Origin: Iphione sp. A-MEVVRFRX5
Lineage: Eukaryota
Direction: 5' to 3'
Assembly: GCA_976226885.1 (NCBI GenBank)
Contig: OZ320314.1
Location: 67,332,001 to 67,396,000 of the forward strand
Length of the DNA: 64,000 nt
Shown one piece after another: positions 1,614 through 62,144 of the stretch (the stretch's first letter is position 1; the number at the start of each line of letters is the position of its first letter). Position numbers and translations under genes: made by a program. Under the pieces are notes generated by a model. That model did no database searches. It was not told where the DNA came from and saw only the letters and a list, made by a program, of their open reading frames with translations.

Positions 1614-2027
1614 TGGCGTCAGGTACGAGGAAAGAATGCCAAGCTTCACGTCTCCTCAAGCTGACTACGCAGTCGAGCGGCTACATCGCCAGCTCTATCA
1701 CCGAAGAAGAGGGGCTTGGTTCTGTCCACTGCCCCTGGTGGATCCGTGTCAATCCGGGCCAGCGTATCCGCATTACACTGCTTAGCTTTGTGGGCGCGGC
1801 GCCAAGCGTGCAGGAAGGCGGCACGGAGAAGCAGTTGGCGCGGCGACAGGAGATTTGCTACGATCTAGCTATCGTGCTCGAGGAGCCTGTCAAGAAGACC
1901 ATCACTGTCTGTCCAGGCGAGGAGCGAGAACGCAGCGTGTTCGTCTCACGCTCTAATAGTATTAAGGTGGAGATTGTACGGCGCAGGTTGCTCAGCTCGC
2001 TCGGGGCCTTCCTGCTCAAGTACGAAG
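1614..2027 (+). CDS. Host receptor gene, CUB-like domain exon
   Basis: ttgcag acceptor, GTAAGA donor at 2028; 414 nt, phase 1-1. SGYIASS...CPWWIRVNPGQRIRITLLSF...VFVSRSNSIKVEI...FLLKYE is a CUB-type pattern. Confidence 0.85.
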
Positions 2028-37928: not shown

Positions 37929-39420
37929 TCAGAGAAGTATGATATTACAATTCGACAATTCGACTTTTTTCCCAGTTTTGATGGGTGACACCAGGGAAAT
38001 ATTCTTGGGAACAACAATGTCTAGCATTTCTTCATCAATCATAGAGGCGATTTCGAGAGTGATGTAATTTGGTTTGAATGGAAAGGGGGAAACTATTTGG
38101 GGGGGAGACACTGGAACTCGTTCTATATCTGACCATCCTGGAGTAGACATTGTGGATGTACTGGGGTTTGTACATATAGGAGTAGATTGTGATGCACATG
38201 GAGTTATTGGCATGGTCGAAGTTGTGGGAATTTTGGACACTTTGGGAGGGGGGCTGCAAAGAATCATCCTCTTTTCCAGATCAAATGAGGGCCTTTTGTA
38301 CAGTTTTACAGCATTGGATCGATGCCCACTCATGGAATTGATGGCCTATTCATCAAATGAGTTCTCGAAGAGGGTGGTGTAACATGTCACTTTGCCTGAG
38401 TGCCCTGATATATTTTTACCTTCGGTACTAAGCCCTCCAGGCTGAATTATTGACACCATGTATCCTGACAATTTGTTGATTCTTACGTGTTGGATGATGA
38501 ACATTACATTGCCATTGACATTTTGCATAGGACACTTGTAAAAACATCCCACTCTGGGTACAGCATCCAAATTAGCTCTGAAAATTTTCACAACACATCT
38601 TTCATTATCAGGCTGGCCATAGTGTTTGACGACCCTGGGGGCTGCTTTAGATGTTACTTTTGCTGTTACAGTTTTGGCTACTCTGCCATTGTATTGTTAA
38701 TATTTGGGACTCTTTCTCGACCAAATGGGTACTGTTCTACCATCAAAGTGACATGTCTTTTCCCCAGAATCTAAACACCGTACAATTGTAAAAATACACT
38801 GCATGTGACAATGCTTGGGCTGTTTCAAATCCAATAACACCTGATTCCCATAGGTGTGATTCTTTGTCAAGAGTGATAGGTCTGCTCGAATGGGTTGGAC
38901 TAGCACACCGCATCCAATGAAACACTTGCGTCTAGCGTCCAGAGCATCATGAAATCGTTTAAAGTTGACATCATCCTGCTTTAGAAGCCAAATATTGGAT
39001 CTCCCCATAACATCTCTCATGTAGCGCTCTATAGATGCTGCTATGTTGGTCAGGGTCCCTGAAAAATATAAATAATATCCATAAGATTCTGGGGCAAATA
39101 CTGCCCTTAGATCTAAGAATCTTAAAACGTACTACATGTACTTACCAGGAGGGTATGCAGACCCATCCCTTTTCCTAATTTTGGTTATGAATCTTGACAA
39201 CCAATAATCTAAAGGGTCCAAATCATCTGTGTCCAAAGCAGGAGCCGGCCCTTCGGGATCCTGTCTTGATCGTGAATATTCATTTTGCCTGGTGCACCAC
39301 TCCTTAAATATACCATGTTACACTGGGATCACCCTCAAGGCTCTGGATTTCTGGAAATCGATCACTTTGGCCTTGATTTGGTTTATCTATGTTTGCAGGG
39401 TGAAGGCATGAGTGCCTACT
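37929..39420 (-). pseudogene. Crypton-type (DUF3504-like) tyrosine recombinase pseudogene, copy 1, with an 87-bp intron (39145-39059)
   Basis: WLSRFITKIRKRDGSAYPP|GTLTNIAASIERYMRD, FKRFHDALDARRK, SHLWESGVIG....QALSHAVYFYNC, HSGKVTCYTTLFENSFDE, SGHRSNAVKLYKR, terminal LSNCNIIL. Frameshifts and stops present. Confidence 0.75.
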
Positions 39421-42400
39421 GATGATATACCTAAAACAGGTGTCCGTTCACTAGGGTACTATTTAAATTACCGTAGGATTTCCCACTTCTCAAGAATGAC
39501 ATGACCACACTTAGAATAATGAGATTTATTCAAAGAGAGATACAATGTGTCATGTACAACAGCAAGGTGTGAAATGGTGACATCCCTGAGGAACCCCTCT
39601 TATATACACCCACTATCCTCAGGATGCTACTCCACCCGTCCCCATACCACACACTGCATGCCAATGCCCATGCCGCATGCCGCACATCATGCCACATCAG
39701 GCACATCGTGGCTACACTGCCCTCCCTCTAGAGGGGTGCTTGTCTCAAGCATTCAACACAGAACCAGTCCAACTTGAACCGGCAACAGAAAAACATCATG
39801 TGCACTGGACATCAACCAGACCCCAGGCAACATTCCTGTCCACAACTCTCTGGAATCCACCTGGACATGTCCATCCTCTGTCGCCACCTCATGCCAGATA
39901 CCTAGCCTCGACCTTGGGTGAGGACTACCCCATGGTTGGAGTGCCACCTAGCAAACTCCAACCCAGTCACCAGTGGCCATGCTCTACGGAAACGCAGGTT
40001 TTGGTGGATGGAGACCTTGACCTGTCCCTGTGTCAGCACCTGCAGGTCCAGGGCACTGCCATATTCAAGCAGCTCCCACCCAGCAGGAAGTGTTGTCCCG
40101 GCCAACACCAGGTGGGCGGTCTCCCAAACATACACCAAGTCTGGGATGGCCTCCTCCAGACCAGCAGGGCTGGAGATGTCCTGCAGTGTCCATGGGGTGA
40201 CGTGCCCACATGCACTCTGACCAGTGTATTCAGGGCTGAAGTCTGAGAGGGCAGCCAGGCAGACACAGGCAAGGGGGGGACCCGGTAACCTGAGGTGCAC
40301 CAGAGGGTTACCCATGCTACGGCCAGCCAGCCCCACCAGCACAGGCATCGAGTGTCCGGGAGCGTTCAGTCCTGTTTTGCCTCTCCCTGTTCTGGGCGCA
40401 TCACCATTGTCCCCCTCGGGCTCCTCTGGTGCTGGACAGGTAGGAGTCGCCTCTTGCTGATCAGAAGTCGCAGCATCCCCGACCGGTCCTGCCTCGCCTC
40501 TCTTTGCCCTGGGTGCAGCACCATCATCCCCCTCCTGTTCTTCTGTTGCCAGAAGGGTGGGTGTTGCCTCCTGCTTATCGGACGTCACAGGGTCAATGAC
40601 CAGGGATGTGTTCCCTTGGGGATAGGTGGCTGTTGCTCCATGACCACCAATGTCTTCTGGTCGGTCCCCTCCTCATCCATGGCAGTGGGTTGCTCTGTCA
40701 CAGGTACCTCTGGACTGCCAGACCCGTATCACTGACCCTGCGAAGTCCCGGGCACTCCTCCTTCATCCTTGTCTGCTGCTGCATGAGCAACCCTACACTG
40801 CCTGAGGTTCCTCTGTGAGGGGCTGATCTGGGGTGGCCATGGGGGTGACAGAGTCCCTTGCTGCTGTCGTGCTGACCACCTGCTGCTCCCTTCCATCCAT
40901 GGCTGGTGGGCCAGTGTTGAGGACAATGCTACAAGGAATAGCCCCTCAGGACCCTCCTCCTCCAAATCATCCTCAAACAGCTCCTGGAAGTCCATCTTCT
41001 CTGCATTGCCCCCCCCCCCCCCCGAGTCTGAGCTGATATCCTTGATCATGTAGACTCCGACAGTTTGCCCTCACCAGCCGAGTCATCAGTGACACCTCCT
41101 GTTGCGCTGCTGGGAGGGGTGTCTCTGGGGGGTGGTTTGGCTTGCTCTGGTCTTCTCAGCTAGTGCCCTACCCCGGGCCGAAGGCCACCTGCCGGTGGCT
41201 GGCAACCCCAATGGTGTAGATGGCCCGGGGTGCCGCCCTGCTGGTATATGGAAGGCCGCCCTGCCCCACCCACCGGTCTCTGGGGTTGCCTAGCACCGGC
41301 ACTTCCCGATGGCCAGAAGGTGCCTGGCAGTCGCCTGACATGAGGGAGGGCTCTGTCGAGTGGCCTGCCTCTCCTGAGGGGGTATCCTCCTGCAGGGACC
41401 CCTCCAGAGTCCTTGGTCTCCATCGTGCTGGTGTCGAAGAGGTCCTGCTCATCGCAGCTGGTATTGTGGAATGCTGAATGACCTCCCTTTGGCATGGCCA
41501 GGACGGCCGCTCGGATGTGCCCTCCTCAGAGGAGCTGGGTGGGAGTGCCGGTGCCTTGCATTTCTTTCCCAAGTATCCTGTCTGGCATCGTGGGCAGTGT
41601 GGGGCCGAGTCCCCCCAGCCTGGAGGTGCCCGGCAGATGATGAGGAGCCTGGCCTAGGCTGGTGTGCGGGGGCCCGGGTGCTGGATGTAGGGGCCACCAC
41701 AGGGGGGGGATTGCCTTCAACTGCCGTGCTGGGGGTGCTGTCCCAGTACTTTCCTTGGTGGTTGGCCCTCTGGCTGGAGGAGTCTGCCCCAGATGAAATG
41801 GTGTCTGTGATGAGGACAAGTCTTTCTTTCGCGCCTTCCCCTCCTTCTTCCGCACCAACTTTAAGTGATCCCCATATTCTTCTGGGCACGGGACTAAATC
41901 TCCCCTAGTCAGATTCAGGCTGTGAAACTGGAGGTACTCAACGTTGATGGACTGGGACAGTGCACGGAGAGCCGCCACCCCATGGATCTTCTCGAGGTGG
42001 TGCTTCCAATCCATCCTCTGGTGGAACGCCAGGTTCTTGCATTTGACCTCTTGGCAGATCCACCTGAAGCCCTCCCGGCGGTGGACATCCTGTGCATGGC
42101 CCTAAAGGTTGGACAGCTGCACGAAGCCCACTCCACACTCCTTGCAGATGTGGGGGGACTCGTTGCTTCATCATTGCTGCTGGGGGCAGGCACGACCTCA
42201 TCCTCACTGCTGGAGGGGAGTGTGGGCTGCTCCTCATCTGTTAGCTGGTTGGCTGTCGATACTTCCTCGGTCATCCCCCAGTCGCACGGGGACAGGACAA
42301 CATGGCACTCTTTCATGCTGCGATGGTGTTGTTCATCGATGGCACTGTGGCAGTCATCCAATGAGGTGTTGTCTGAGTGCCACACACTGCTGCTGCATGG

Positions 42401-43043
42401 CAAGCTACTGCAGCTTGGTGAACTGGTGTGGCATGCGTCAGATGCTGCACGGTATGATGAACCCAGGTGCAGTGGCATGGTCCGAGCTGCAGAGAAAGAA
42501 ACACCATGAGTGCTGTGGCATAACGGTGATGTCCCTCTGATCATATTCCAAATGGACTGGAATTACCCTGCAGCATGCCCCAACCCAGCTACCCAACGTG
42601 GCTTACTACTGCCGCTATGCCCGGTATTATCACCCATAATACACGATCGTTTCACCTCACTGCAGGGATTTGATGCTGCTGCTGTTGGATCACTATGCCC
42701 AGGTGGATTATCCACAACTTCCTGCCACTTGCTAGCTGCCGTTGCATTGCCGCAAAGACATGAATCCACGTGGGAGGGTGCCCGATGTGCTCCAGTGGCA
42801 GTCCAGTTGGCAAATGCTGTGGTATTTAAGCTGATAGTCGTATATTGACAACACAACTTTATGAATGCAGCCTTTTCATAATACACTAGCGGACTTGGTA
42901 TCTTCACCTCTTCACGTCTGATGCAAACAACCAATGTATATACTACTAGACTATCCACACCCGTTCAGAAAGCATGAAAACCGTGCTCTTGAAAATACTA
43001 ATTGACGTCTGAGGCATACAGCTTTGTACAAGATTAGTTTTTC
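38171..43043 (+). repeat. Segmental duplication copy 1 (matches 52914-57786; offset 14,743)
   Basis: Near-identical ORF sets in both copies; roughly 15 substitutions and small homopolymer indels counted by eye. Confidence 0.97.
39525..42566 (-). pseudogene. Decayed 2xC2H2 zinc-finger accessory cassette, copy 1 (80-bp 5' intron 42566-42487, ATG 42478, AATAAA 39530-39525)
   Basis: HICKECGVGFVQLSNL*GHAQDVH and WICQEVKCKNLAFHQRMDWKHHLEKIH at about 41980-42150. In-frame TAG at 42104-42102, frameshifts, and a TpG/CpA-rich composition. Confidence 0.6.
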
Positions 43044-43417
43044 TGGTCAAACAAAGTAAGTGCAGGAGTACTGGACTCGGTGCACATGCACTAAGGGTCG
43101 CTGTGGTACCACAGCCACCCCTGGATTTAAAACAAACTACCCTGGAGTCTCAAAGATCTCTTGTGATTGGATCGGCAGCACTCGGCTGTGGTCCCACAGC
43201 CCAAAAAGTGATACTTTGCTCTCTCCTGGTTGGTGGGTTAGTTGAAAGGGCTGTTAAAGAAGGTAACAATGTATTTTCTTACTCTGTTACTGACAGATGA
43301 TTGGCTAGTGCCTGGATTGGAGAAAAGATATAAATATGAGAGTGAACCTGAATAAAGACAGTTTTGAATCAGGACTCAGAGTTGTCAGTTCTTTATTGAA
43401 CCCAAGTAGAAACTACA
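43043..43417 (+). mobile_element. Gypsy 5' LTR, truncated by loss of its first 103 bp
   Basis: Matches 58043-58417; ends ACTACA; contains TATAAA and AATAAA; followed by the PBS. Confidence 0.92.
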
Positions 43418-43418
43418 C

Positions 43419-43436
43419 TGGTGTCAGAAGTGGGAT
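43419..43436 (+). promoter_or_regulatory. Primer-binding site TGGTGTCAGAAGTGGGAT, complementary to the 3' end of tRNA-Leu
   Basis: Begins 1 nt after the LTR-terminal CA; reverse complement ATCCCACTTCTGACACCA is the known 3' end of metazoan tRNA-Leu(CAA). Confidence 0.88.
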
Positions 43437-43448
43437 CCACTGTACATC

Positions 43449-44311
43449 ATGGCTACCAAGTTTGTGGCAGTTGACGACGAGGTACAGTTGCGCGTACCGG
43501 ATGCGGACGAAGAAGAGGAAGCTGAACCTTACGTGTTAGCCCCAGAGGAGCCACTGCGCACCAACGCCATGAAGCCCGAGCGATTCGATGGCAGCGTAGT
43601 CGACTGGGACAGCTGGATTGTCCAGTTTGTCGAATGGGCAGATGCATGCAAGTGGAGTCCGAACACAAGAGCTTCAGCACTGGCTCTGTCGTTGACTGGC
43701 ACCGCCCGAATGTACTTTGGAGACCTCCCATCGGAGGACAAGGCCGACTTTGAGTCCAGGGTAGCCGCCTTGGAAAAGCGGTTTGGGCGTCGACGTAATC
43801 GAGTGACGGCTATGCAAGACCTGTCCACAATCCGCAGGCAGAAAGGGGAGGATGCTAAGGGGTTTGCTGACAAAGTCCGACGACTTGTACGCACCGCGTA
43901 CCCCGATGTGAGTGCGGAAACACGAGAATTAGCAGCAGTGTCGGCCTTCCAACGGGCACTCCCAGACGACCTGCATTTGAAATGTTTAGAAGCCCAATGC
44001 AAGACCATGGAGGCTGCACTACAGGTAGTGGAGATCCAGGAGCGGTTCCCCGCGAGGAGAGTGAATGCCGTACAAGCAAGTGGCAACAAGGATTCTAACA
44101 GCCCAGCACCCAAGGACATGGTGGAAGTCCTAATGCAGGAGTTTGCCTACGGGAGGAAATGCGACCTCAGAGGTCTCGGCCCAGGGACAATTTGTGTTTC
44201 ATCTGCAAGCAACCGGGTCACTGGAAGAGAGATTGCCCGAAAGCCCCACAGCAAGCATCGAACGCTACAGGGCCCAAACCATCGGAAAACACACAGCAGT
44301 CGGCTCAGTAG
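43449..44311 (+). pseudogene. gag: Gypsy gag with one frameshift near 44145 ahead of the CCHC zinc knuckle
   Basis: MKPERFDGSVVDWDSWIVQF...LALSLTGTA capsid-like region. CFICKQPGHWKRDC (44195-44236) lies in the -1 frame relative to the gag ATG; TAG at 44309-44311. Confidence 0.85.
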
Positions 44312-47300
44312 GCCAGGGGACACCGACTGCATCTGTCCACCGGGAGGTGATAATGGAATACGGCCAGGGACCACATCTCAAGGTAAGCTGTGGTGGGAGG
44401 ACACTCCTACTGCTTATTGATACGGGTGCTGAAGTTTCCATTATGAATCCCTGTGTGGTCCCTGGCCCAGTTGTTAAGAGGGCTGCTGTGAAGGTTATGG
44501 GGGTAGGGGGTCATATCCTGCCAACGGTAGGGAGAGAGGAAGTTCAGGTAGGGATTGCTGGAAAAGAATTCAAACACCACTTCCTGTTAGCAGAGATAGA
44601 AGGGGATGGGATATTGGGGGCAGATTTCTTGACCCAGCATGGCACTGTCATTGACCTGTCAAAGGGTGAGGTTTTGTTTGGGGGGACCCCTAGGGGGAAG
44701 GAACAGACCAGAGGAGTTAAGGTACTGAGGGCAGCCTCCGATATTACGGTTCCCCCTGGGGAAGGGGTGGGGATCCCAGTGTCTCCCAGTGGAGAGGGCC
44801 CATTCTTGGTAGAGGGCTTAGAGGAGGGTCGGTTATTACAAGGGGTGGTAGGAGTGCGCTGCATTGTAAGCCAGGTGCTGCCCGTGTGGAACACTGGGGA
44901 GAGGGAACTGTTGATCCAACAGGGGACATCCCTAGCTCTTGGCTCGCCAGTGCAGAGGGAGGAGGTTACTGACTGCCCTCAAGATCACCCCCTGAAAGTG
45001 TCTACCACCAAGGTGGGGGCAGGAACCGTGATAGATGAGTTGATGGCCACTAAGACAGTTCACCTCACGGGAGGGGAACAGGGAGAGCTGCGGGTGGTGC
45101 TAGAACAGCACAGGGGGGCCTTTGCACAACACAAAGGTGATTTGGGTTGTACGGACGTGGTGCAACATCGTATTTGTACGGGGGAGTCAGGTCCCATTAA
45201 ACAGCAACCCCGGCGCCTGCCCCTGTCAAAGAGACAGGAAGAACAGCAACTAGTAAGGGAGATGGCAGAGGCCGGGGTCATTGTCGAGAGCCAGAGCCCC
45301 TGGGCAAGTCCCTTAGTCATGGTACGCAAGAAGGATGGGACTACTCGTTTCTGTGTCGACTACCGGAAACTAAACCAACAGACGAAGGTTGACGCGTATC
45401 CCCTACCCCGAGTTGATGATTCGTTAAGCGCACTGGCGGGAGCTCGGTACTTTTGCTCGTTAGACTTAGCATCGGGCTATTGGCAGGTTAAGATGGATCC
45501 GCGGGACCAGGAAAAGACGGCCTTCACCACATCCTCTGGGTTGTACGAGTTTACGGTGATGCCGTTTGGGCTGGTCAACGCTCCTGCTACGTTTGAGCGC
45601 TTGATGGACACGGTGCTCAGGGGACTGACCTGGGAGCAATGCCTAGTCTATCTGGACGACGTATTGGTATTTGGGCGGGATTTTGGGGAGACGCTAGCTC
45701 GGTTGGATCGGGTGCTCTCTCGAATTGAGGCTGCTGGCTTAAAATTGAAACCGGCTAAGTGCCGTTTGTTCCTTGAGGAGGTTCCTTTCCTGGGACATCG
45801 GGTGTCCTATCGGGGGAATTCAGCGGACCCCGGGAAGGTGCAGTGTATACAGGAGTGGCCGAGGCCGACCTCCACTACCGAAGTAAGAGCCTTCCTCGGA
45901 CTTTGTTCCTACTACCGCCGACTGGTGGCTCATTTTGCCGACCTAGCAGCACCCCTACACCGGCTGACTAGCCCCCGGACCCGGTTTTATTGGGGCCCCG
46001 AGGAAGAGGAGGCCTTCGAATCTTTGAAACAGGCATTGCAGGCCAGTCCCGTGCTGGGCTACCCGATGCCTAAGGGACGTTTTTATTTGGACACAGACGC
46101 CAGCAATGTAGGGCTTGGAGCCGTGCTTTCCCAAGAGCAGGAAGGCCAGGAGGTAGTCCTCGCATACTTTAGTCGCAGCCTCACGTCACCGGAACGGAGG
46201 TATTGTGTGATGCGGAGGGAGCTGCTGGCAGTGGTAGCTGCTTTGAAACATTTTCATTTTTTTATATACGGGCAGGAGGTCACGGTGCGGACGGACAATG
46301 GGGCGGTTAGCTGGTTGAGCCGTATTCGGGACCCTGAGGGGCAGTTAGCCCGATGGCTGGAGAGAATCGGTCAATATCACCTCCACCTTCAGCACCGGCC
46401 AGGGCGCTTACATGGTAATGCGGATGCTCTATCCCGAATGCCGTGTAAACAGTGCAAGCAAGAGCATGGGGTCGAGGTACGAGTCGTCACCCGAGGCTGC
46501 ACCCAAGGGGCGGCAGATCGCGCCCTTCGGGGTGCGCAGCTGGACGACCCAGATATTGGACCTATCCTGACGCTGAAGGAGGATACGTCTGGTAAGCCAG
46601 AGTGGGAGAACATTTCTCCCTTGTCAAGGGCGGCCAAGAAACTATGGCAGCAGTGGGACCGTCTGGTGGTCCAAGAGGGGCTGCTATACCGGCGGTGGCA
46701 TGAGCTCGAAGCCTCAAGAACACGCTTGCAGCTGGTACTCCCTGCGCAGCGACGAGTCAAGGCTATCGAAGAAATCCACCAAGGCCGGATGGGTAGCCAC
46801 TTAGGGGTAGACCGTACCACCTTCTTGGTGTCTTTGGCATATTATTGGCCTGGGATGCAACAAGATATACAAAACTTCTGTGCGAAATGCCACTGTGCCC
46901 TCCTCACAGTAAACCCCTTCCGCCCACAGACGACGCTGCGCACTTATGTGTCCGGGGAGCCAATGGAGAGATGGTCCATGGACGTGGCCGGTCCATTCCC
47001 CCATACCAAGCGGGGCAACTGTTATATCTTAATGGTGGGGGACCACTTCACTAAATGGCTAGAGGCCTTCCCACTGCCTGATCAGAGGGCAACCCGGATA
47101 GCACAAGTACTAGTGGAGGAGGTGGTCTCTCGGTATGGATGTTTCATGGAGCTCCACAGCGACAGAGGGACCAACTTCTGCGGCGAAGTTGTTTCTGCTC
47201 TGTGCGAGTTCCTGCAAATCCAGCGAACCAAGACGACCCCTAGGCACCCCCAAGGGGACGGATTTATCGAAAGAAGCTTTCGCACGCTAGGGAAAATGAT

Positions 47301-47874
47301 TAAAGCCCACTGCCATGATACCGACGACGACTGGGACGAAGCGCTCCCACTGCTTATGATGGCGTACTGAGCTTCCCCCCAAGCCAGTACTGGCTTCACA
47401 CCTAACTTCCTGATGTTCGGTCGGGGGGTGGTCCTGCCAGCGCATGCGATGGATGGCCTCCCTCTTAGCGAGTGGGAGGGGAAGGAACGGGTGACTATGC
47501 CAGAGTGGGTACAGCGCCTTCAACGCCAGCTGAAGAGGGCTTACCAGACGGTCCGGGAGCACTTGGTAAAGGCTGCACGGACGCAGGCTAGAGGATATGA
47601 TCACCGGGCAAAAGGGGAACCCCTACAGGAAGGGGACGCGGTGTGGTTACACGAAGCTCAACCACCCAGAGGGAAGAGCCCTAAAGTATACTTGCCCTGG
47701 ACGGGTCCATGGCTCGTCACCAAGGTGCTGGACCCAGAGCGATTGGTGGTCCAACGGGCAGCCCGGGCTCGCCCCAAGGTGGTGCACTGGAATCGCCTAC
47801 GACTGTATCGTGGGGAGATACCTCGTTGGATCGCGTCTTGGCTGCGGCGCGCGAATAAGGAAGGGAGCTCGTAA
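44284..47874 (+). pseudogene. pol: Ty3/Gypsy pol (PR-RT-RNaseH-IN) with a single nonsense codon at 47368-47370
   Basis: LLIDTGA protease; FCVDYRKLN, MPFGL, YLDD; DTDAS and RRELLAVV RNaseH; H..H..C..C, MDVAGP, SDRGTNF, GFIER integrase; WTGPW GPY/F motif. YRAS has become Y*AS (CGA>TGA) and the frame stays open to 47874. The 5' boundary (-1 shift from gag) is approximate. Confidence 0.95.
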
Positions 47875-47914: not shown

Positions 47915-48295
47915 CAGAGAGCTCCAGGGAGGGGACACTGGACATCCCCGGGTACGGGACCCAATAGTTCCAGAGGGGGAGGCTGGACATCCATGGGTGT
48001 GGGACCCAAAAGCTCCAGAGGGGGGAGGCTGGACATCCTCGGGTGTGGGACCCAAAAGCTCCAGAGGGGGAGGCTGGACATCCCCGGGTGTGGGACCCAA
48101 AAGCTCCAGAGGGGGGAGGCTGGACATCCTCGGGTGTGGGACCCAAAAGCTCCAGAGGGGGAGGCTGGACAGCCCCGGGTGTGGGACCCAAAAGCTCCAG
48201 AGGGGGGAGGCTGGACATCCTCGGGTGTGGGACCCAAAAGCTCCAGGGGGGGAGGCTGGACATCCCCGGGTGTGGTACCCAAAAGTTCTAGGGGG
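47915..48295. repeat. G-rich 45/46-bp tandem repeat, about 8.5 units, after pol
   Basis: gggacc unit starts at 47956, 48001, 48047, 48092, 48138, 48183, 48229 and 48274. Confidence 0.95.
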
Positions 48296-48706
48296 GAGAA
48301 AAAGGGGGGAGCTCCCGGTTTCGGAAGGGCAGCCCTGCGGCCACTCGCAGTGTAGGCCCGTGGTAGCTGAGAAGTTGACAGACCATGAAGGTGGAACTGA
48401 CGGTGGAGCCGGCCTGGGCCAGAAGGAGACGGAGGTCTGACCAGGCTTTGTCCTCTGGGCGAGCCGGCACGCTATCAGGGGTAGAGCCAACCCGGACCAG
48501 AGTGTAAGAATTAGAACCTGGTCAGGTTATGTCCTCTGGTCGCTGCTACGGGATGACGAGCGGGGTGTTTATAGTTAAGTCTGAGAGCGAATGGAACATA
48601 GAGCGAACACAAGGGACAAATCAGTTAGCTGAAATTTATTTCAAGGTATGTCGGCCACGCAACTACAGAGTATTTAGCATGGGGAGTATAATTGCCATTC
48701 AAAGTC

Positions 48707-49576
48707 CTATTCCTCATCGGAGGAAGATACCAGAATGGGGCAGAAGGGGGCGTCGCCCCAACGAAGCTGACGATACCAGGCTGCCAGGGCGGGAGTCAAA
48801 ATCGCCGAGAAGGGCACATGACCTCCCGGAGGGGAAGTCCCCAGGGGTGAGGAGCCGCAGGAGACGTCATCGCCTGTCTCGGGGGTAGTGCATTCTGGCC
48901 TCGTGACAGCCAGAGACGGAGGCAGTACAGAGTCTTTTCCTGACGGGGCGGGTGACGGCCCCGGGCTTGGAGAGGAGCGTCCCGATCCATCCGCTGGGGG
49001 TGGTGACGCGCCCATCACGGAGAGGTCCTGGTGGGATCCCCAGGGGTCCAGACGACTGCTGGTAAGGGATGAGGGGCTGTCGGTGCTATACCCGGAAGCA
49101 CTGGAGGAGGGAGAAGCCGGTGGGGGCAGCGGGGTGGTGTAGCAAGCAGCCCAGTCTGATGGGGCGGGCATCGTTGGCGGGGGCCGCGCCGAGCCAGGAG
49201 GGGCGACTGGGCGTACCACCAGGTCAATCACGTGAAGCGGTCCCAGGAAGATCAGACGACCCGGAACGGACAAGATGAAGGGGGCATCTATGATCTCATG
49301 GGTGCCGGAAACTCGTACCACCGGCCCTTCTGTATGAATGTTCACGCCAGAGGGAGTTGACCCGGGCAGGGTGGGTCGATAGCGGAGCCTGGGGAAGAGA
49401 AAATAGGCAGGAAAAATGAAGATGGGTCTGGCTGACACTAAACCCCAGGAAGGGGCGATGTTAGATAACACTTAGAACGAATGGAAGTAGAGGAAGAGTT
49501 ATCCAAACACTCACAGGCGATAAGGCCGAAGAGCGGTAGCAGGAAGGTGCCCAAACGCGGTCCCTCGACTGGTCAT
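48707..49576 (-). CDS. Gypsy antisense accessory gene, coding exons 49576-49515 and 49388-48707, about 247 aa; 5'UTR intron 49707-49590
   Basis: GTGAGT donor at 49514 and long-pyrimidine ccccAG acceptor at 49389 join in phase 2. The upstream intron has a GTATCC donor, an actaat branch-like motif, a T25 tract and tttcAG. Protein ends ...PILVSSSDEE*. Confidence 0.68.
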
Positions 49577-49806
49577 GGCTGGGTTTAGGCTGAAAAAAAA
49601 AGGGAGGAACCCGTGAAAAAAAAAAAAAAAAAAAAAAAAACGATTTGTCATTAGTTCAGCTAGTTCAAAGATGTTAAACAGTTGCCATTCCTACATAAGA
49701 TGGATACCTGTAGAACTGGGGTAGCTGGAAGGGGTAGCTGGAAGGATAGAGAAGCCTGGTGAGGTGCATTAAGAGTCCAGATGAAGCAGGCTGGCCGTAG
49801 CCCATC

Positions 49807-50164
49807 TTATTTATATTTGGGGGGAGCGCAGTGAGCCAAGATGATTGGCTACGGCGGGCAGCGAAGATCGTGTATGTGGTGCCACAGATATCATTGGCGT
49901 TCGAGCGATTGGCTGGGAGGATAACCACTTGTACTGTGGTGCCACAGAGATCCAACATAACGGGAGATTGGTGGGATCGGGGGAAATAACCGATACAATG
50001 TATCAGGTGAACGGGCTGTGGAACCACAGGCGGGGAGGGGGTGTCGCCCTCTGGAGGGAGAACGCAGCGAAAGTGCCTGTGGTGCCACAGCCGAAGGAAG
50101 GGAAATAGGGTGGTGTAGCACAGTTTTGTCCTATCCCTACCAGTCCCCTAATGATAATATAAAA
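49807..50164. promoter_or_regulatory. Putative divergent internal promoter of the Gypsy element
   Basis: TATAAAT on the minus strand (49813-49807) and TATAAAA on the plus strand (~50158-50164) flank several ATTGG (CCAAT) boxes and four CTGTGG-NN-CCACAG palindromes. Confidence 0.62.
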
Positions 50165-50736
50165 AGAATGAACCTTCAGCAGTCATAGAGTAAGCAGTTT
50201 CGCTGCGGGCCCACAGATGAGATACGGACGCGGGACACGGGATCTCGCGGGGCGCGAGAGAACCCGTGGTCTCGCGAGACGTGATCAATGGCGGCCCGTG
50301 GCACCACAGCTGGCCACGTGAGGGAGAGAAGAGGCTGAGAAGAACAGCGGGGACGCCGGGGGACAGTGCCAAAAATAAGTCTTTCTGTGTGAACACATCC
50401 GACGGGGCATTGAGAAACAGGAGGACGATCGTGGGCGTGGAACCACAGACCACAGTCTCGGGCAGACACTGCGGAAGGATCGAGTGACTGGGCAAGGAGC
50501 AGCAGTCGCCATCACCGGACTGTGGCCGCGTCCCGCACCTCCATCTCCGACGACAGGTAAGAGCGGCTGAGTGACCACTTCAAGGCAGCCAGCTTGTTGT
50601 CCGTGGTACCACAGTGATTGTCTGCCATTGACTGTTCATCTCTGTGTGTTGTAGTCTGTGGCCCCACGTCCTGACCTAACCGGTACTGTCAACGAGCTTG
50701 TGGTTCCACAACCACCCTGCCTGGCCGTCCCTCTCT

Positions 50737-51498
50737 ATGGCAAGTGGCATGCCCCGGCAGAAAGTGGCACGTCCCCCGCCGCCCCAGGTGGAGGAAGGAG
50801 AGCCCCTGCCCCCTGGTACAGCTTGGTGCGAGCTCTGCACACCCCACCGGGTGTACTGGGCGGGGGAGTCCTTGGAGCGCCATCAGAAGGAGCAGCATGG
50901 GGGCCGTCGACACCGACAGATGGACTGCCTCTTCTGTCCCAGCGTCCTGGGCGAGCCGGGCACCTGGCTCGCCCACTTGTGGCGGCGCCATCCGTGGGTT
51001 GTGGAGAGGGGATTGACGGCCCCCGCCTACCGCAGCCTCTTCGACCATCAACAGGGCGACGCGGGGGAACTTTTCGTGCCCGATGACAACCGGGCCGACG
51101 TCATCATCCGAGCCCGACAGCTCTCCGCCACTCTGGGTACCTTTATGGGGCCGGCAGAAGCAGACGAGATCCTGGAGCGTCGACCGACCCTCCCCGAGCG
51201 GCGCGTCGTCTGGGGGCGACAACTGCCTCCTCTCCTGCCTGAGCACGGCGCACCTCGGACACCGGCGGCCAGACCCCCACCCTGGTCTCTCGGACCATCG
51301 TCTTCGTCGGTAATGGAGTCCACACCCCCGCCGGAGCCCCAGCCGCCCCATACTTCTGGCCGAGCCTGCTGGCGCACCTCACCGGCCGCTGCTGCCGTTG
51401 GACGTCCCGCTTCCCCCTCCGACTCTGGGGAGGGCAGCGTAGGGAGCGATCGCACTCCGCCCGTGCCTCCAGCTCCTGCCGGGCAGGGGTATCTCTGA
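50737..51498 (+). CDS. Gypsy sense accessory gene: two C2H2 zinc fingers plus a Pro/Ser-rich tail; 5'UTR intron 50557-50654
   Basis: First ATG at 50737. CELC-x14-H-x4-H and CLFC-x12-H-x4-H. Upstream cag|GTAAGA donor and tgtgttgtAG acceptor. Confidence 0.75.
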   Translation: MASGMPRQKVARPPPPQVEEGEPLPPGTAWCELCTPHRVYWAGESLERHQKEQHGGRRHRQMDCLFCPSVLGEPGTWLAHLWRRHPWVVERGLTAPAYRSLFDHQQGDAGELFVPDDNRADVIIRARQLSATLGTFMGPAEADEILERRPTLPERRVVWGRQLPPLLPEHGAPRTPAARPPPWSLGPSSSSVMESTPPPEPQPPHTSGRACWRTSPAAAAVGRPASPSDSGEGSVGSDRTPPVPPAPAGQGYL

Positions 51499-52813: not shown

Positions 52814-52913
52814 GTTCAAGCCTATAAGACTGCATGCTCAGGGACACTCGGATACGTTTGGGATTAGATGCATTGTAAAATTTTAGCAGGTGTTAAGTAA
52901 TGATGGCGAGAGA

Positions 52914-54163
52914 TACATATAGGAGTAGATTGTGATGCACATGGAGTTATTGGCATGGTCGAAGTTGTGGGAATTTTGGACACTTTGGGAGGGGGGCTGC
53001 AAAGAATCATCCTCTTTTCCAGATCAAATGAGGGCCTTTTGTACAGTTTTACAGCATTGGATCGATGCCCACTCATGGAATTGATGGCCTATTCATCAAA
53101 TGAGTTCTCGTAGAGGGTGGTGTAACATGTCACTTTGCCTGAGTGCCCTGATATATTTTTACCTTCGGTACTAAGCCCTCCAGGCTGAATTATTGACACC
53201 ATGTATCCTGACAATTTGTTGATTCTTACGTGTTGGATGATGAACATTACATTGCCATTGACATTTTGCATAGGACACTTGTAAAAACATCCCACTCTGG
53301 GTACAGCATCCAAATTAGCTCTGAAAATTTTCACAACACATCTTTCATTATCAGGCTGGCCATAGTGTTTGACGACCCTGGGGGCTGCTTTAGATGTTAC
53401 TTTTGCTGTTACAGTTTTGGCTACTCTGCCATTGTATTGTTAATATTTGGGACTCTTTCTCGACCAAATGGGTACTGTTCTACCATCAAAGTGACATGTC
53501 TTTTCCCCAGAATCTAAACACCGTACAATTGTAAAAATACACTGCATGTGACAATGCTTGGGCTGTTTCAAATCCAATAACACCTGATTCCCATAGGTGT
53601 GATTCTTTGTCAAGAGTGATAGGTCTGCTCGAATGGGTTGGACTAGCACACCGCATCCAATGAAACACTTGCGTCTAGCGTCCAGAGCAACATGAAATCG
53701 TTTAAAGTTGACCTCATCCTGCTTTAGAAGCCAAATATTGGATCTCCCCATAACATCTCTCATGTAGCGCTCTATAGATGCTGCTATGTTGGTCAGGGTC
53801 CCTGAAAAATATAAATAATATCCATAAGATTCTGGGGCAAATACTGCCCTTAGATCTAAGAATCTTAAAACGTACTACATGTACTTACCAGGAGGGTATG
53901 CAGACCCATCCCTTTTCCTAATTTTGGTTATGAATCTTGACAACCAATAATCTAAAGGGTCCAAATCATCTGTGTCCAAAGCAGGAGCCGGCCCTTCGGG
54001 ATCCTGTCTTGATCGTGAATATTCATTTTGCCTGGTGCGCCACTCCTTAAATATACCATGTTACACTGGGATCACCCTCAAGGCTCTGGATTTCTGGAAA
54101 TCGATCACTTTGGCCTTGATTTGGTTTATCTATGTTTGCAGGGTGAAGGCATGAGTGCCTACT
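52914..54163 (-). pseudogene. Crypton-type tyrosine recombinase pseudogene, copy 2, C-terminally truncated at the duplication breakpoint
   Basis: Same motifs as 37929-39420; lacks the last about 80 codons. Confidence 0.72.
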
Positions 54164-54267
54164 GATGATATACCTAAAACAGGTGTCCGTTCACTAGGGT
54201 ACTATTTAAATTACCGTAGGATTTCCCACTTCTCAAGAATGACATGACCACACTTAGAATAATGAGA

Positions 54268-57200
54268 TTTATTCAAAGAGAGATACAATGTGTCATGTAC
54301 AACAGCAAGGTGTGAAATGGTGACATCCCTGAGGAACCCCTCTTATATACACCCACTATCCTCAGGATGCTACTCCACCCGTCCCCATACCACACACTGC
54401 ATGCCAATGCCCATGCCGCATGCCGCACATCATGCCACATCAGGCACATCGTGGCTACATTGCCCTCCCTCTAGAGGGGTGCTTGTCTCAAGCATTCAAC
54501 ACAGAACCAGTCCAACTTGAACCGGCAACAGAAAAACATCATGTGCACTGGACATCAACCAGACCCCAGGCAACATTCCTGTCCACAACTCTCTGGAATC
54601 CACCTGGACATGTCCATCCTCTGTCGCCACCTCATGCCAGATACCTAGCCTCGACCTTGGGTGAGGACTACCCCATGGTTGGAGTGCCACCTAGCAAACT
54701 CCAACCCAGTCACCAGTGGCCATGCTCTACGGAAACGCAGGTTTTGGTGGATGGAGACCTTGACCTGTCCCTGTGTCAGCACCTGCAGGTCCAGGGCACT
54801 GCCATATTCAACCAGCTCCCACCCAGCAGGAAGTGTTGTCCCGGCCAACACCAGGTGGGCGGTCTCCCAAACATACACCAAGTCTGGGATGGCCTCCTCC
54901 AGACCAGCAGGGCTGGAGATGTCCTGCAGTGTCCATGGGGTGACGTGCCCACATGCACTCTGACCAGTGTATTCAGGGCTGAAGTCTGAGAGGGCAGCCA
55001 GGCAGACACAGGCAAGGGGGGGACCCGGTAACCTGAGGTGCACCAGAGGGTTACCCATGCTACGGCCAGCCAGCCCCACCAGCACAGGCATCGAGTGTCC
55101 GGGAGCGTTCAGTCCTGTTTTGCCTCTCCCTGTTCTGGGCGCATCACCATTGTCCCCCTCGGGCTCCTCTGGTGCTGGACAGGTAGGAGTCGCCTCTTGC
55201 TGATCAGAAGTCGCAGCATCCCCGACCGGTCCTGCCTCGCCTCTCTTTGCCCTGGGTGCAGCACCATCATCCCCCTCCTGTTCTTCTGTTGCCAGAAGGG
55301 TGGGTGTTGCCTCCTGCTTATCGGACGTCACAGGGTCAATGACCAGGGATGTGTTCCCTTGGGGATAGGTGGCTGTTGCTCCATGACCACCAATGTCTTC
55401 TGGTCGGTCCCCTCCTCATCCATGGCAGTGGGTTGCTCTGTCACAGGTACCTCTGGACTGCCAGACCCGTATCACTGACCCTGCGAAGTCCCGGGCACTC
55501 CTCCTTCATCCTTGTCTGCTGCTGCATGAGCAACCCTACACTGCCTGAGGTTCCTCTGTGAGGGGCTGATCTGGGGTGGCCATGGGGGTGACAGAGTCCC
55601 TTGCTGCTGTCGTGCTGACCACCTGCTGCTCCCTTCCATCCATGGCTGGTGGGCCAGTGTTGAGGACAATGCTACAAGGAATAGCCCCTCAGGACCCTCC
55701 TCCTCCAAATCATCCTCAAACAGCTCCTGGAAGTCCATCTTCTCTGCATTGCCCCCCCCCCCCCAGAGTCTGAGCTGATATCCTTGATCATGTAGACTCC
55801 GACAGTTTGCCCTCACCAGCCGAGTCATCAGTGACACCTCCTGTTGCGCTGCTGGGAGGGGTGTCTCTGGGGGGTGGTTTGGCTTGCTCTGGTCTTCTCA
55901 GCTAGTGCCCTACCCCGGGCCGAAGGCCACCTGCCGGTGGCTGGCAACCCCAATGGTGTAGATGGCCCGGGGTGCCGCCCTGCTGGCATATGGAAGGCCG
56001 CCCTGCCCCACCCACCGGTCTCTGGGGTTGCCTAGCACCGGCACTTCCCGATGGCCAGAAGGTGCCTGGCAGTCGCCTGACATGAGGGAGGGCTCTGTCG
56101 AGTGGCCTGCCTCTCCTGAGGGGGTATCCTCCTGCAGGGACCCCTCCAGAGTCCTTGGTCTCCATCGTGCTGGTGTCGAAGAGGTCCTGCTCATCGCAGC
56201 TGGTATTGTGGAATGCTGAATGACCTCCCTTTGGCATGGCCAGGACGGCCGCTCGGATGTGCCCTCCTCAGAGGAGCTGGGTGGGAGTGCCGGTGCCTTG
56301 CATTTCTTTCCCAAGTATCCTGTCTGGCATCGTGGGCAGTGTGGGGCCGAGTCCCCCCAGCCTGGAGGTGCCCGGCAGATGATGAGGAGCCTGGCCTAGG
56401 CTGATGTGCGGGGGCCTGGGTGCTGGATGTAGGGGCCACCACAGGGGGGGGGGTTGCCTTCAACTGCCGTGCTGGGGGTGCTGTCCCAGTACTTTCCTTG
56501 GTGGTTGGCCCTCTGGCTGGAGGAGTCTGCCCCAGATGAAATGGTGTCTGCGATGAGGACAAGTCTTTCTTTCGCGCCTTCCCCTCCTTCTTCCGCACCA
56601 ACTTTAAGTGATCCCCATATTCTTCTGGGCACGGGACTAAATCTCCCCTAGTCAGATTCAGGCTGTGAAACTGGAGGTACTCAACGTTGATGGACTGGGA
56701 CAGTGCACGGAGAGCCGCCACCCCATGGATCTTCTCGAGGTGGTGCTTCCAATCCATCCTCTGGTGGAACGCCAGGTTCTTGCATTTGACCTCTTGGCAG
56801 ATCCACCTGAAGCCCTCCCGGCGGTGGACATCCTGTGCATGGCCCTAAAGGTTGGACAGCTGCACGAAGCCCACTCCACACTCCTTGCAGATGTGGGGGG
56901 ACTCGTTGCTTCATCATTGCTGCTGGGGGCAGGCACGACCTCATCCTCACTGCTGGAGGGGAGTGTGGGCTGCTCCTCATCTGTTAGCTGGTTGGCTGTC
57001 GATACTTCCTCGGTCATCCCCCAGTCGCACGGGGACAGGACAACATGGCACTCTTTCATGCTGCGATGGTGTTGTTCATCGATGGCACTGTGGCAGTCAT
57101 CCAATGAGGTGTTGTCTGAGTGCCACACACTGCTGCTGCATGGCAAGCTACTGCAGCTTGGTGAACTGGTGTGGCATGCGTCAGATGCTGCACGGTATGA

Positions 57201-57309
57201 TGAACCCAGGTGCAGTGGCATGGTCCGAGCTGCAGAGAAAGAAACACCATGAGTGCTGTGGCATAACGGTGATGTCCCTCTGATCATATTCCAAATGGAC
57301 TGGAATTAC
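54268..57309 (-). pseudogene. Decayed 2xC2H2 zinc-finger cassette, copy 2
   Basis: Duplicate of 39525-42566 with the same lesions. Confidence 0.6.
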
Positions 57310-57940
57310 CCTGCAGCATGCCCCAACCCAGCTACCCAACGTGGCTTACTACTGCCGCTATGCCCGGTATTATCACCCATAATACACGATCGTTTCACCT
57401 CACTGCAGGGATTTGATGCTGCTGCTGTTGGATCACTATGCCCAGGTGGATTATCCACAACTTCCTGCCACTTGCTAGCTGCCGTTGCATTGCCGCAAAG
57501 ACATGAATCCACGTGGGAGGGTGCCCGATGTGCTCCAGTGGCAGTCCAGTTGGCAAATGCTGTGGTATTTAAGCTGATAGTCGTATATTGACAACACAAC
57601 TTTATGAATGCAGCCTTTTCATAATACACTAGTGGACTTGGTATCTTCACCTCTTCACATCTGATGCAAACAACCAATGTATATACTACTAGACTATCCA
57701 CACCCGTTCAGAAAGCATGAAAACCGTGCTCTTGAAAATACTAATTGACGTCTGAGGCATACAGCTTTGTACAAGATTAGTTTTTCGTTATTTTCCAATT
57801 GTATTGCATCTTTCCCTTAAACAATTCTAAAAGCTATTTTCTATGAAATACAATTAATGCATCTTTGCCTCATTGTCAACAAACAAGTTTTCAATGCACA
57901 TTTTCAATATAATTCAACCTATGTAAAATCGACTACATAT

Positions 57941-58417
57941 TGTAGTGGTATGCAGGAGCCGGCCGCGAGCTGTGGTGCCACAGGTGGAGGCACGGGCGCA
58001 CGCCCCGTGCGCAGAAGTGTGTGGTGCCACAGTCGGGGTGCACTGGTCAAACGAAGTAAGTGCAGGAGTACTGGACTCGGTGCACATGCACTAAGGGTCG
58101 CTGTGGTACCACAGCCACCCCTGGATTTAAAACAAACTACCCTGGAGTCTCAAAGATCTCTTGTGATTGGATCGGCAGCACTCGGCTGTGGTCCCACAGC
58201 CCAAAGAGTGATACTTTGCTCTCTCCTGGTTGGTGGGTTAGTTGAAAGGGCTGTTAAAGAAGGTAACAATATATTTTCTTACTCTGTTACTGACAGATGA
58301 TTGGCTAGTGCCTGGATTGGAGAAAAGATATAAATATGAGAGGGAACCTGAATAAAGACAGTTTTGAATCAGGACTCAGAGTTGTCAGTTCTTTATTGAA
58401 CCCAAGTAGAAACTACA
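57941..58417 (+). mobile_element. Complete solo LTR, 477 bp, TGTAGT...ACTACA, ATAT TSD
   Basis: ATAT at 57937-57940 and 58418-58421; no PBS follows; four GTGG-NN-CCAC palindromes, ATTGG boxes, TATAAA (~58328) and AATAAA (~58351). Confidence 0.95.
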
Positions 58418-59236
58418 ATATCCAAAAGCCAATTGAACCAAACAGTCATCTTCACTCTGCCCCCATCTACTTGAATTAGGACATTTTGGCTTCGCCTCGC
58501 CATTCTTAACCCTCTTCTCCTAATCGACACATCATAGAAACTGCAGCACGGCCACAATGTTGTGTCATACATTTCTTTTTCATTTAGTGCCTATCATTAT
58601 AAAAAAAAACAAATAAATATATAAACAGATGAACCTTGTATCTCCCTATACATCATGTTTTATGACAGAGGCCATCCCTAAAGAGGACTAGCCTATCTTG
58701 GACCAACTGAAAACTCCTCCATGCGATTGTGCTAGTTAAATATTACGTAGCTTTGACGACATGCGCAATTGTCATAGCTTCTCTGCAACATTATATTTCA
58801 CTCAGGTACGAGAGCGTTGTATCCATAAAATCTTTTCAAATTTTAAAATAAATACTTACAATGTCGATGCTTCCTTTCTCCACCAAAGGCGACTAGATAT
58901 GCATAGACAACTGTTCTGCAACAGAGACATTTGTTTATTTCTAAGCCTCCCTCCAATATGAGTAAAATGGCAAACAGTCATGAATTGGTAGATGAAAGCA
59001 CTTAGTTTTAGTCCGAGGGATAGTCCCCCAGCGGAGTCTCTCTGCAATATTAGGAATTCGAGGACAATGGTAAATGCACCTAGGTTTCATACTTTGACAG
59101 TGTTAAGCCAATACATTATATAGACCCAAAATGTTGTAGAAAAAAACGATACATGTACAGGTGCAGTTCGCACAAGAGGTACATGTATACGCAATGGACA
59201 TCCCTTTTACGGTTAAAAATTTTAGCAGATCCAATC

Positions 59237-62144
59237 TCAGACAGTTGTCCTTGTGTTGGTTATATTATCGATAATGGACTCTAAGAACATCATCAACAGC
59301 TTTACTGAAACCTGGCTTAACCAACACATTAATGACTCAAACATCAAACTTTCAGGATTCCATATACTCAGACAGGATAGAATCTCTGCGAAAAAATCAA
59401 CTGGTGGGGGGATTTTGGTATGTGTAAATAATGAATGTGATGTATCCATTATAGATGATCTATCAATCAACTCTGAAACTTTCGAGTCACTAGCCCTACG
59501 TATCTCATTCAGATGGTGCAAACCTTTCACAATAATAGTAATCTATAGACCACCAGAGGGCTCAGTCAAAGAATTTGTTAATGAACTTTATTCCAGACTC
59601 ACCAGGTGGCAGTTCAAGAGAGATGACTGTGTGCTGCTTCTGGGTGATTTCAATATAGATTGGTCAACCGTAAACAGTAAGTTAAAGTTAATGGCTGACA
59701 TGATGTATGGACTCGGGTTCACACAACTTATTAACGGTAGCACCATGGTAAATTCAGAAAAGACCAACGATCTAATTTTCTCCAACACAGAGGTATTCAA
59801 TGATGCTAGAGTATTAGATTGCTCTTACAGCAATCACCTGGCTATTTCTGTGACTTATAAAACGGGTGTAAGGTGGAAAAACAATTCCCCAGTGCACAAA
59901 ACATATATTGATATGTCAAAATATTCATACAGCAAACTTGCAGAATGTATTAGAGCGTTGAGAATTGATATAATTACAGAGTGCAATCCTCAAGAGACAT
60001 GGGATAGCATATTGAGTCATAAAAACAGGAGTACAAAATACATGTAACATTAAGGTGACAAAAGGCAATGATTGTAAGAGGTGCAAGGTACCCATACCAC
60101 ATGATCTACATGAGTTAATTCGTGACAGACGGTACTTCCTGCAGAAGTGGAAAACACTGGGCGACACTGATGCTAGGAACATCTACAGATACCTGGACAA
60201 AAAGGTAAAAATCGAAGTTCATATAGTCTATCAACAGTATTACTATAATAAGCTTTTACTATATCAGAGAAATCAATCGAAACTATGGAATATTCTACAC
60301 GAGCTCTTAGGTAACAATGTTAAAAAGGACAAAATCAACATAGCCATTAATAATGAAATGTTGCCCAACCATGTTATCTCAGACACGTTCAATGAATATT
60401 TTATAGATACGATAGACAAAATAAAGCAGAAGTGTTCTGTAGTGAGCATCCCTCGAGACCGGATGGGCAATGACAATATCAATATTGTTCCCTTTAGTAC
60501 TCTAGAGGTAACCAAAACTATTAGTAAGATTAAATTGAACAAAGCAAGCAATGTCACAGACATGAACACTAGGATACTCAAAGATGTGCTGATGAACCTA
60601 ATCCCTGATGTCACCACCCTGTTCAACAATATCCTAGAACAGGGTGCTTATATTGATGATTGGAAGGTAGCACGAGTAGTCCCCATATATAAAAAAGGAG
60701 ACAGAAATACCATTTCCAACTATAGGCCGATCAGCAATCTCCCCCTTCCAGGTAAATTATTCGAGCAGATCTTTTGCAAACAATTGATTAAGGAACTTTT
60801 CAGAATAGATTTTTGGAGTAAGCATCAGCATGGCTTCCTTCCAGGGAGGTCCACAAAAACTGCATTAGCTGAAATTATAAAGCACATTCTTGATGGCGTT
60901 GAGCATGGTCATCTTGTAGGGATAATTGCATTTGACCTAACCAAGGCCTTCGACCTCTTGGATAGTCGCATAGTGAGTAAGATACTTGAAGTTGAGGGGG
61001 CCCACAGCAACATCCTATCCCTAATAAAGGACTACTTCAATAATCGGCAACAATATGTGGATGTCAACGAACAAAAATCAGACTTACTGCCCCCAAAACA
61101 TGGCATTCCACAAGGGAGCACCATCGGACCCCAAGGGTTTGCCATGTGTATAAACGATATTGTTAAAGAAGTACCACAGGGTATGTATATCACCCTATAC
61201 GCCGATGACATTACGTTTGTGGTTACAGGCAGAGATTCGAAAGAACTAGAGCACAACCAAACTAAGGCATATGCACACACTATTGAGTGGTGTACAAAAA
61301 AATAACCTCTTGCTAAGCCATGAAAATAGTGCTTTCTGTCTTCTAAACAAAAAACTAGACGGGCTGCATGATATATCTTATCAGGGATACACTATAACTA
61401 GACAAAGAAATATAAAAGTACTAGGGTATATAATAAACAAAGGCTTAACCTGGAAGGAAATGATAAATAACACTATCTCCAAAATGTGGTGCACGTCTTA
61501 CAGACTAGGCAAGCTGAAAAGATGTATACCTGTAAACATCATGACCACGTTATTCAAATTGTATGTATACCCTTTTATTGATTACTTATCGCCAGTATTA
61601 TGTGGCATCAAAAAGAACCTTCTAGAAAAACTGACAAAAAACTACAACAAATGTGCCAGGCTAATGCTATGCAAAAACATACAAGGAAATAGGCAAAATC
61701 CATTCCTAATTCATGATATTGATACATTGGAAAAGAGGATCAAACTAATCACCCTCGCTCTTGTACACAATTTATCGATTACAGGACGAATCCCTATAAG
61801 ACCTATCTCTAAAACACGTTCAGGTTCATGTTTAAGAATACATATGTACAGAACAAAAAAAGGTATTGCACGTAGGTCTTTATTCGAAGTTGGTGCATCA
61901 TGGTGGAATGAATTACCCCTTTTGCTAAGACAATGTACGACAGTGAGTATGTTCTGTAAAAAGTTAAAACAACAATAATGACCTGTAAATAGCATGGTGA
62001 GAGTGTTGAACAGAATGTAAACATGTATGTATATTACCATGTATTTATGATGACTATGTAATATGATATGGCTGTCCAAAAATGAAGAGCTCCACCTGGA
62101 GATACCTTTTTTGACAATAAAAATCAAATCAAATCAAATCAAAT
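59237..62144 (+). mobile_element. 5'-truncated CR1/L2-group LINE: APE endonuclease plus RT (ORF2) with frameshifts near 60030 and 61300 and an (AAATC)n tail
   Basis: FTETWL, RQDR..GGGI, VIYRPP, GDFNI, DLIFSN; WKVARVVPIYKKG, NYRPIS, HGFLPGRST, DLTKAFD, GIPQGS, YADD. AATAAA at 62116 followed by four aaatc repeats. Confidence 0.93.

Follow-up and report, generated by a model that had tools for sequence, protein, structure and literature searches.

Whether an LTR retrotransposon can carry both a DNA-binding regulator and the sites that this regulator reads is the question raised by this locus. LTR retrotransposons are usually taken to be dependent on host transcription factors. In the window, that is, the whole stretch of 64,000 nucleotides of the Iphione sp. 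genome analysed here, the first-pass annotation had noted the palindromic word CTGTGG-NN-CCACAG in an LTR and again in front of a zinc-finger ORF, and had proposed that a finger protein encoded by the element recognizes its own LTR and its own promoter. We analysed the window copy (Table 1) together with its relatives among the elements of the 1.18 Gb host genome.

The window copy belongs to the Ty3/Gypsy group: paired TG...CA LTRs were found in 12 copies, with a purine tract before the 3′ LTR, and 4-bp target duplications were readable in 11 of these 12. Among the 12 close copies (L022–L044), the duplications were strongly skewed to ATAT/GTAT. The primer-binding site (PBS) had 698 exact matches in the genome, compared with 0 for a reversed control. 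The reported sharing of the word with an LTR holds in so far as a full LTR with four sites is present, but this is a solo LTR, flanked by a target duplication of its own, and does not belong to the window copy; the truncated 5′ LTR of the window copy is 98.9% identical to 58043–58417 of the solo LTR. The window element ends at 52913, approximately 150 bp short of its own 3′ LTR, and a duplicated host segment starts there. This duplication of 4,874 bp encloses the element body, the solo LTR lies 155 bp past its second copy, and it may represent a local rearrangement or an assembly join.

Table 1. Positions of features in the window and of the finger region in the sister lineage (window coordinates unless a locus is named)
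Feature	Position	Strand	Remarks
CUB-like exon	1472–2098		below cut-off
DDE_Tnp_4 transposase fragment	10988–11449
Open frame, 592 aa	14379–16157	−	basic repeat-like N-terminus; no Pfam match
Frames near the decayed finger pair	38346–39131		no Pfam match; presumably resembling a tyrosine-recombinase (Crypton-type) remnant
Decayed C2H2 pair with helix	41922–42167	−	duplicate near 56665–56910; 30% to sister fingers, E 5e-5; ~3 kb from the frames above
5′ LTR of window copy	43043–43417	+	first 101 bp missing; two sites kept (43101, 43186)
PBS	43418–43435	+	directly 3′ of LTR
gag-like ORF	43449–44420	+	62–66% identity to sister lineages
pol, Ty3/Gypsy	44134–47874	+	PR-RT-RH-IN order; in-frame stop 47368–47370 in window copy
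Tandem array	47920–48299		~45-bp units; after pol
Antisense ORF	48707–49471	−	other side of site array; divergent from finger gene
Predicted promoter of antisense ORF	49808–49971	−	TATA-like ~49810; CCAAT 49844, 49893, 49908, 49967
Site array, ten CTGTGG-NN-CCACAG	49874–50711		flanks unrelated
Finger gene, N-terminal part	50749–51498	+	frame ends early in window copy
Finger gene, C-terminal domain, ~200 aa	51767–52367	+	two further frames in window copy
Second copy of 38171–43043	52914–57786		99.7% identity
Solo LTR, same family	57942–58417	+	TG...CA ends; own ATAT target duplication
U3 sites of solo LTR	57970, 58019, 58101, 58186	+	upstream of CCAAT 58300, 58316; TATA 58329; AATAAA 58351
LINE endonuclease-RT	59226–61978
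Sister finger region	L155 6395–6640		also L125, L126, L128, L131, L140, L142, L144, L161, L163, L164

All 16 positions listed for the word in the first pass do hold it. The ten internal sites lie within two mismatches of CTGTGG-NN-CCACAG, with three exact (49934, 50016 and 50077), four at one mismatch and three at two, and the core GTGG-NN-CCAC is present in nine of them; three of the four sites in the full LTR are exact. In 1000 dinucleotide shuffles of 49700–50760, the mean number of sites was 0.087 and the maximum 2, compared with the ten observed, and for the four LTR sites the shuffled mean was 0.04 and the maximum 1. The remaining 62,088 bases of the window contained a single match, in agreement with the earlier remark that no comparable cluster occurs elsewhere. 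We then compared the window lineage with a subfamily that is ~25% diverged. The eight core arm positions were changed in 5/152 cells (3%) versus 355/1155 elsewhere (~30%), and in the same subfamily the spacers were changed in 6/38 cells and the flanks in 116/388. These differences indicate that the sites are under selection, each kept individually. The U3 and internal sites were also considered as copies of each other, which was ruled out by the identity of their 10-base flanks (0.33 between LTR and internal sites, 0.31 at random positions).

The array leads, as described before, into the finger ORF, which begins at the MPRQ start at 50749, the start conserved across lineages; the window gene itself is broken into three frames, while other copies have a single ORF of ~540 aa. 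This protein consists of the finger pair plus helix (residues 1–142), a variable linker and a conserved domain of ~200 aa. The N-terminal part contains a basic N-terminus, finger 1 (C27-C30-H45-H50), a basic linker, finger 2 (C60-C63-H76-H81) and a helical extension. The two fingers of C2H2 type noted earlier are real, since the C-x2-C...H-x3-5-H ligands are invariant across lineages and the structural model has the beta-beta-alpha fold (pLDDT 79). The fingers of the window lineage are atypical. They fall below the Pfam zf-C2H2 cut-off, the span in finger 1 is 14 residues, a basic linker of nine residues (GKRKR type) replaces the canonical one, structural matches to C2H2 fingers are weak, and similarity to CTCF/Tramtrack-type pairs is weak; the helices are unreadable by the standard code. 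The finger pair gave a dN/dS of 0.12 in the single unsaturated comparison, and in eight others pS was 0.75–0.98 versus pN of 0.09–0.32, values that point to fingers under purifying selection. The C-terminal domain matched no Pfam family, and its model was of low confidence (pLDDT 53). Within the length ranges searched, neither the finger region nor the C-terminal domain had a homologue outside this genome, and the same held for the fingers of the sister lineage, a negative that carries little weight. A search of a 1.84-billion-sequence library with the fingers returned generic multi-finger proteins among the 7 of 150 matches inspected, and the protein atlas gave generic finger clusters only for the finger region.

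The antisense ORF flanks the array on the opposite side; it is kept across lineages and present in all six word classes described below. With a dN/dS of 0.26, it is by this measure under purifying selection; it matched no protein family and had no match in the protein atlas. An antisense ORF is found at the same place in locus L137, in which a sequence match to the window antisense ORF was not detected. The segment predicted as the promoter of this ORF, a function that we infer from its sequence, is interleaved with the first two palindrome sites. A minus-strand TATA was found ~940–990 nt before the finger start in 11/12 close copies, and a plus-strand TATA at this spacing in only 3/12, the latter count standing against the explanation that we favour below.

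Linkage in intact copies had been suggested in the first pass as a check, and it was borne out. Among 16 stretches fetched around matches, 12 contained LTR–interior–LTR copies, with four sites per LTR (once three) and 9–11 internal sites; the other four were diverged or partial, yet held 3–15 sites each. The 12 two-LTR copies join LTR, array and finger gene, indicating that the cassette is part of the element. The array and finger gene were also retained in 7–8 derivatives that lack pol. The pol-less derivatives (L129, L132, L136, L146, L148, L149, L162 and L176) have near-identical LTR pairs and keep gag, and in L148, L162 and L176 the gag of one lineage is joined to the finger gene of another, both of the TCGTGG class. 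One old deleted copy (L157) has the array with the finger gene gone, which counts against the favoured explanation. No close and complete relative without a finger gene was found among the examined elements. L137 (RT 62%) was discarded as a finger-less control, being cut after its antisense ORF, and the distant relatives L133 and L139 (RT 30–34%) have neither fingers nor a shared word.

Next, we compared words and fingers across lineages, the second check suggested earlier. At least 150 loci homologous to the finger protein are present (150 scored of 1070 candidates), and our sample consisted of 20 loci picked according to ORF length class, 40 elements of a single contig located through their PBS, and 20 further stretches. 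Six words were found in one common geometry, xxGxGG-NN-CCxCxx: CTGTGG, ATGTGG, TCGTGG, TYGGGG and TGGCGG form NN-spaced palindromes, and GGGCCCGA is mostly one-sided. In 51/52 copies, the word that prevailed in the LTR also prevailed in the 1.5 kb upstream of the finger gene; the remaining copy had no word at all. For this count 6 loci were skipped (rearranged, or in a stretch without PBS), the data served to define the word classes as well, and the 52 copies amount to about six independent lineages. The ATGTGG lineage has only one internal site at one mismatch. The word tracks residues of finger 2, where positions −1 to +3 read EPG[T/A] with TGTGG, [DE][ED]Q with TCGTGG, HEQ with TGGCGG and DVH with GGGG/GGGC. 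Base 2 of the word is a pyrimidine where position −1 is acidic and G where it is His, and base 4 is G where position +2 is His. The pairing of DVH with two different site forms indicates that the helix is not the sole determinant.

The GGGCCCGA and TGGCGG elements fall into a single RT clade (100/98), with end branches mostly of 0.005–0.02; between their finger domains, by contrast, the distance is ~0.8 changes per site. Such near-identical RT backbones with distant fingers suggest that array, gene and U3 were exchanged as a module. These three parts are contiguous, so co-inheritance is expected, and the exchange therefore speaks for modularity and not for binding. The number of word changes on the trees, which comprise elements of this genome only, did not discriminate: it equalled the minimum for gag (6) and for the finger (5), and was 8 versus a minimum of 7 for RT. 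The branch-length contrast was used instead.

A sister lineage, intended as a negative control (same PBS, RT 54–58% identical), proved to have fingers and a word of its own. GCGGAGG is the top repeat of its 215-bp LTR, occurring 4–7 times near the end, and forms another cluster around the CCAAT/TATA elements that precede a finger gene of a second type. Over the whole element, GCGGAG[G/T] occurs, predominantly on the plus strand, 67 and 75 times per element versus ~6 in shuffled sequence. A single ORF of 2,395 aa spans pol and the finger gene in frame, an ATG preceded by CCAAT/TATA lies in the integrase tail, and 28 of the 150 scored matches were identical in the finger region. These fingers pass Pfam zf-C2H2, with helices RKDNLKR and RKDDLRR, and Asp at finger position +2 favours a following G/T. 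Engineered helices RSDNLAR and RSDDLQR correspond to GAG and GCG, respectively (PMC3607563, Table 2). Read antiparallel, the two natural helices give GCG-GAG as the predicted binding sequence, matching the LTR repeat GCGGAGG; the word had been identified before the fingers were read, with no fitting. A subfamily only 56% identical in the finger domain has the same helices and eight LTR copies of the word. GTGGAGG and GCAGAGG in old sister LTRs were rejected as specificity changes, being CpG-decay products accompanied by helices that are nearly unchanged or decayed. The two finger types aligned with an hhalign probability of 24%, so that their orthology is not established, and the code match supports a strategy of the clade but not the window protein directly. 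The proposal of an element-encoded protein that recognizes its own LTR and promoter thus gains from linkage, from co-variation and from the sister code match, the last with this restriction.

Taken together, it is likely that the encoded protein binds the word sites and, given binding, activation is also likely. The combined reading, in which the two-finger C2H2 protein binds the lineage-specific word in U3 and in the internal promoter and activates both in positive feedback, is fairly probable. Weak basal transcription from the internal region would yield some finger protein, which on the internal array would raise transcription of its own gene and of the antisense gene, and on the U3 sites upstream of CCAAT/TATA would raise genomic RNA. 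The latter location is the usual place of activators and favours activation. The palindromes could accommodate two molecules head to head; as regards dimeric binding, the GGGCCCGA lineage has mostly half-sites, and the sister lineage has a non-palindromic direct repeat. The conserved C-terminal domain would recruit host machinery. The adjoining array, gene and U3 would be swapped as a module between pol backbones, each lineage thereby gaining a private regulator–site pair. Weighing against this reading are the atypical fingers of the window lineage, the RUNX core in most of its sites (see below), the two site forms that accompany DVH and the sparse internal word of the ATGTGG lineage.

The same sites could also be bound without plain activation, with the protein acting in anti-silencing in the manner of VANC, as a copy-number repressor or as a switch between the LTR and the two internal genes, a reading that we regard as unlikely. 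Family-specific words multiplying in tandem U3 repeats do resemble VANC targets, as far as the parts of PMC5735166 covered here describe them. Furthermore, the sister lineage has its sites scattered along the full length of the element, and several sites fall within what is probably the 5′ leader of the finger gene, a place from which a bound protein could repress; the copies are also CpG-mutated, with methylation a pressure. However, private transitions in the sister lineage affected 43/1405 site CpGs and 294/12287 other CpGs versus 445/38031 non-CpG positions, and in the array of the window lineage 51/1446 CpG versus 37/4389 non-CpG positions. Private CpG transitions are thus 2–4 times as frequent as non-CpG ones nearly everywhere, sites included, an excess suggesting that the copies are methylated and the sites not durably protected. 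This weakens a VANC-like reading, in that it argues against lasting demethylation but not against a transient action. In addition, the expansion of U3 sites to 10–14 copies in young lineages fits a gain from binding better than repression.

Improbable, in our estimate, is that host factors bind the sites, RUNX in the window lineage and others elsewhere, with the finger protein acting otherwise (in RNA binding or in guiding integration) and the co-variation reflecting mere neighbourhood. TG[T/C]GGT is the RUNX core consensus, and the RUNX alternative raised in the first pass holds within the window lineage, where the core is found in 16/18 sites; it is found in 8/12 sites of the ATGTGG lineage as well. 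Array, gene and U3 are physically linked, the fingers are atypical, and GCGGAGG is presumably also EGR/WT1/KLF-like. As a site of the whole clade, however, the RUNX core fails: it occurs in 3/29, 0/29, 0/16, 2/27, 0/17 and 0/28 sites of six other elements, and it arises from a spacer bias (TG/CA/TA) common to all lineages. Moreover, six words in one geometry would need a different host factor each time, and in the sister lineage the word corresponds to the code reading of the element's own fingers. From these counts, RUNX may co-bind in the window lineage but cannot alone explain the clade. Binding for a non-transcriptional step, such as bridging of the two LTRs and the cDNA interior for nuclear entry or integration, is very improbable, for although the sister finger gene is in frame with integrase, the sites cluster around CCAAT/TATA and not at the LTR tips, and the window-lineage finger gene is separate from pol.

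Self-activation through U3 and the internal promoter, as favoured here, resembles the foamy-virus Tas/Bel1 system, in which an internal promoter drives expression of a protein that binds DNA of this promoter and of the LTR (PMC4929722, in the part covered here). As in that account, the gene follows the coding region and precedes the 3′ LTR, downstream of the putative internal promoter, and sites are present in the LTR and in the internal region. The likeness is one of layout alone, and a sequence relation is not expected; unlike retroviral Tas/Bel1, the present system has a C2H2 pair in an env-less Ty3/Gypsy element, with words that differ between lineages, 4–14 LTR sites and an antisense gene in divergent orientation. 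VANC proteins of the plant Mutator-like VANDAL transposons were shown to remove methylation and, within the covered portion of that report, share with our system an element-encoded protein whose family-specific short targets accumulate in non-coding regions and evolve with it (PMC5735166). The present case differs in being an animal retrotransposon with C2H2 fingers and no sign of CpG protection. It is a member of neither group.

Between pol and the 3′ LTR, conserved additional ORFs in sense or antisense have been described for Retand (TRP28), Grande, RIRE2 and Boty (PMC7264820, PMC11963269), for rotifer elements (ORF3s; PMC5408684) and for Cer1, whose CERV acts in RNA export (PMC10309623). 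For TRP28 a regulatory role was proposed, with binding predicted but without a target (PMC7264820, PMC11963269). In the sections of these papers covered here, none of the ORFs encodes a C2H2 protein with an assigned target site, and the function of extra LTR-retrotransposon ORFs is treated as an open question (PMC7264820, PMC11963269). Within the open-access literature covered, we found no description of a C2H2 factor that is encoded by a Gypsy element and has cognate sites in its LTR; the searched text of a 2026 preprint on transposases as activators held no mention of retrotransposons or LTRs.

For the clade as a whole, the evidence tips slightly towards a ‘complex’ Ty3/Gypsy group with a swappable module, composed of a two-way internal promoter, its own C2H2 factor and a matching U3 enhancer. 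Several orthogonal self-activating circuits would then coexist in one genome, at least two finger types would have been acquired, and specificity would have been rewritten in finger 2. The extra ORF here has a defined candidate target; one lineage offers a match at the level of the code and another offers six natural word–finger pairs, which makes the question testable with short peptides and oligonucleotides. If the favoured reading is true, Tas-like autoregulation would exist outside retroviruses, the lineages would provide a natural series of protein–DNA co-evolution with an atypical finger pair, and the scattered solo LTRs would be enhancers answering to a transposon-made factor.
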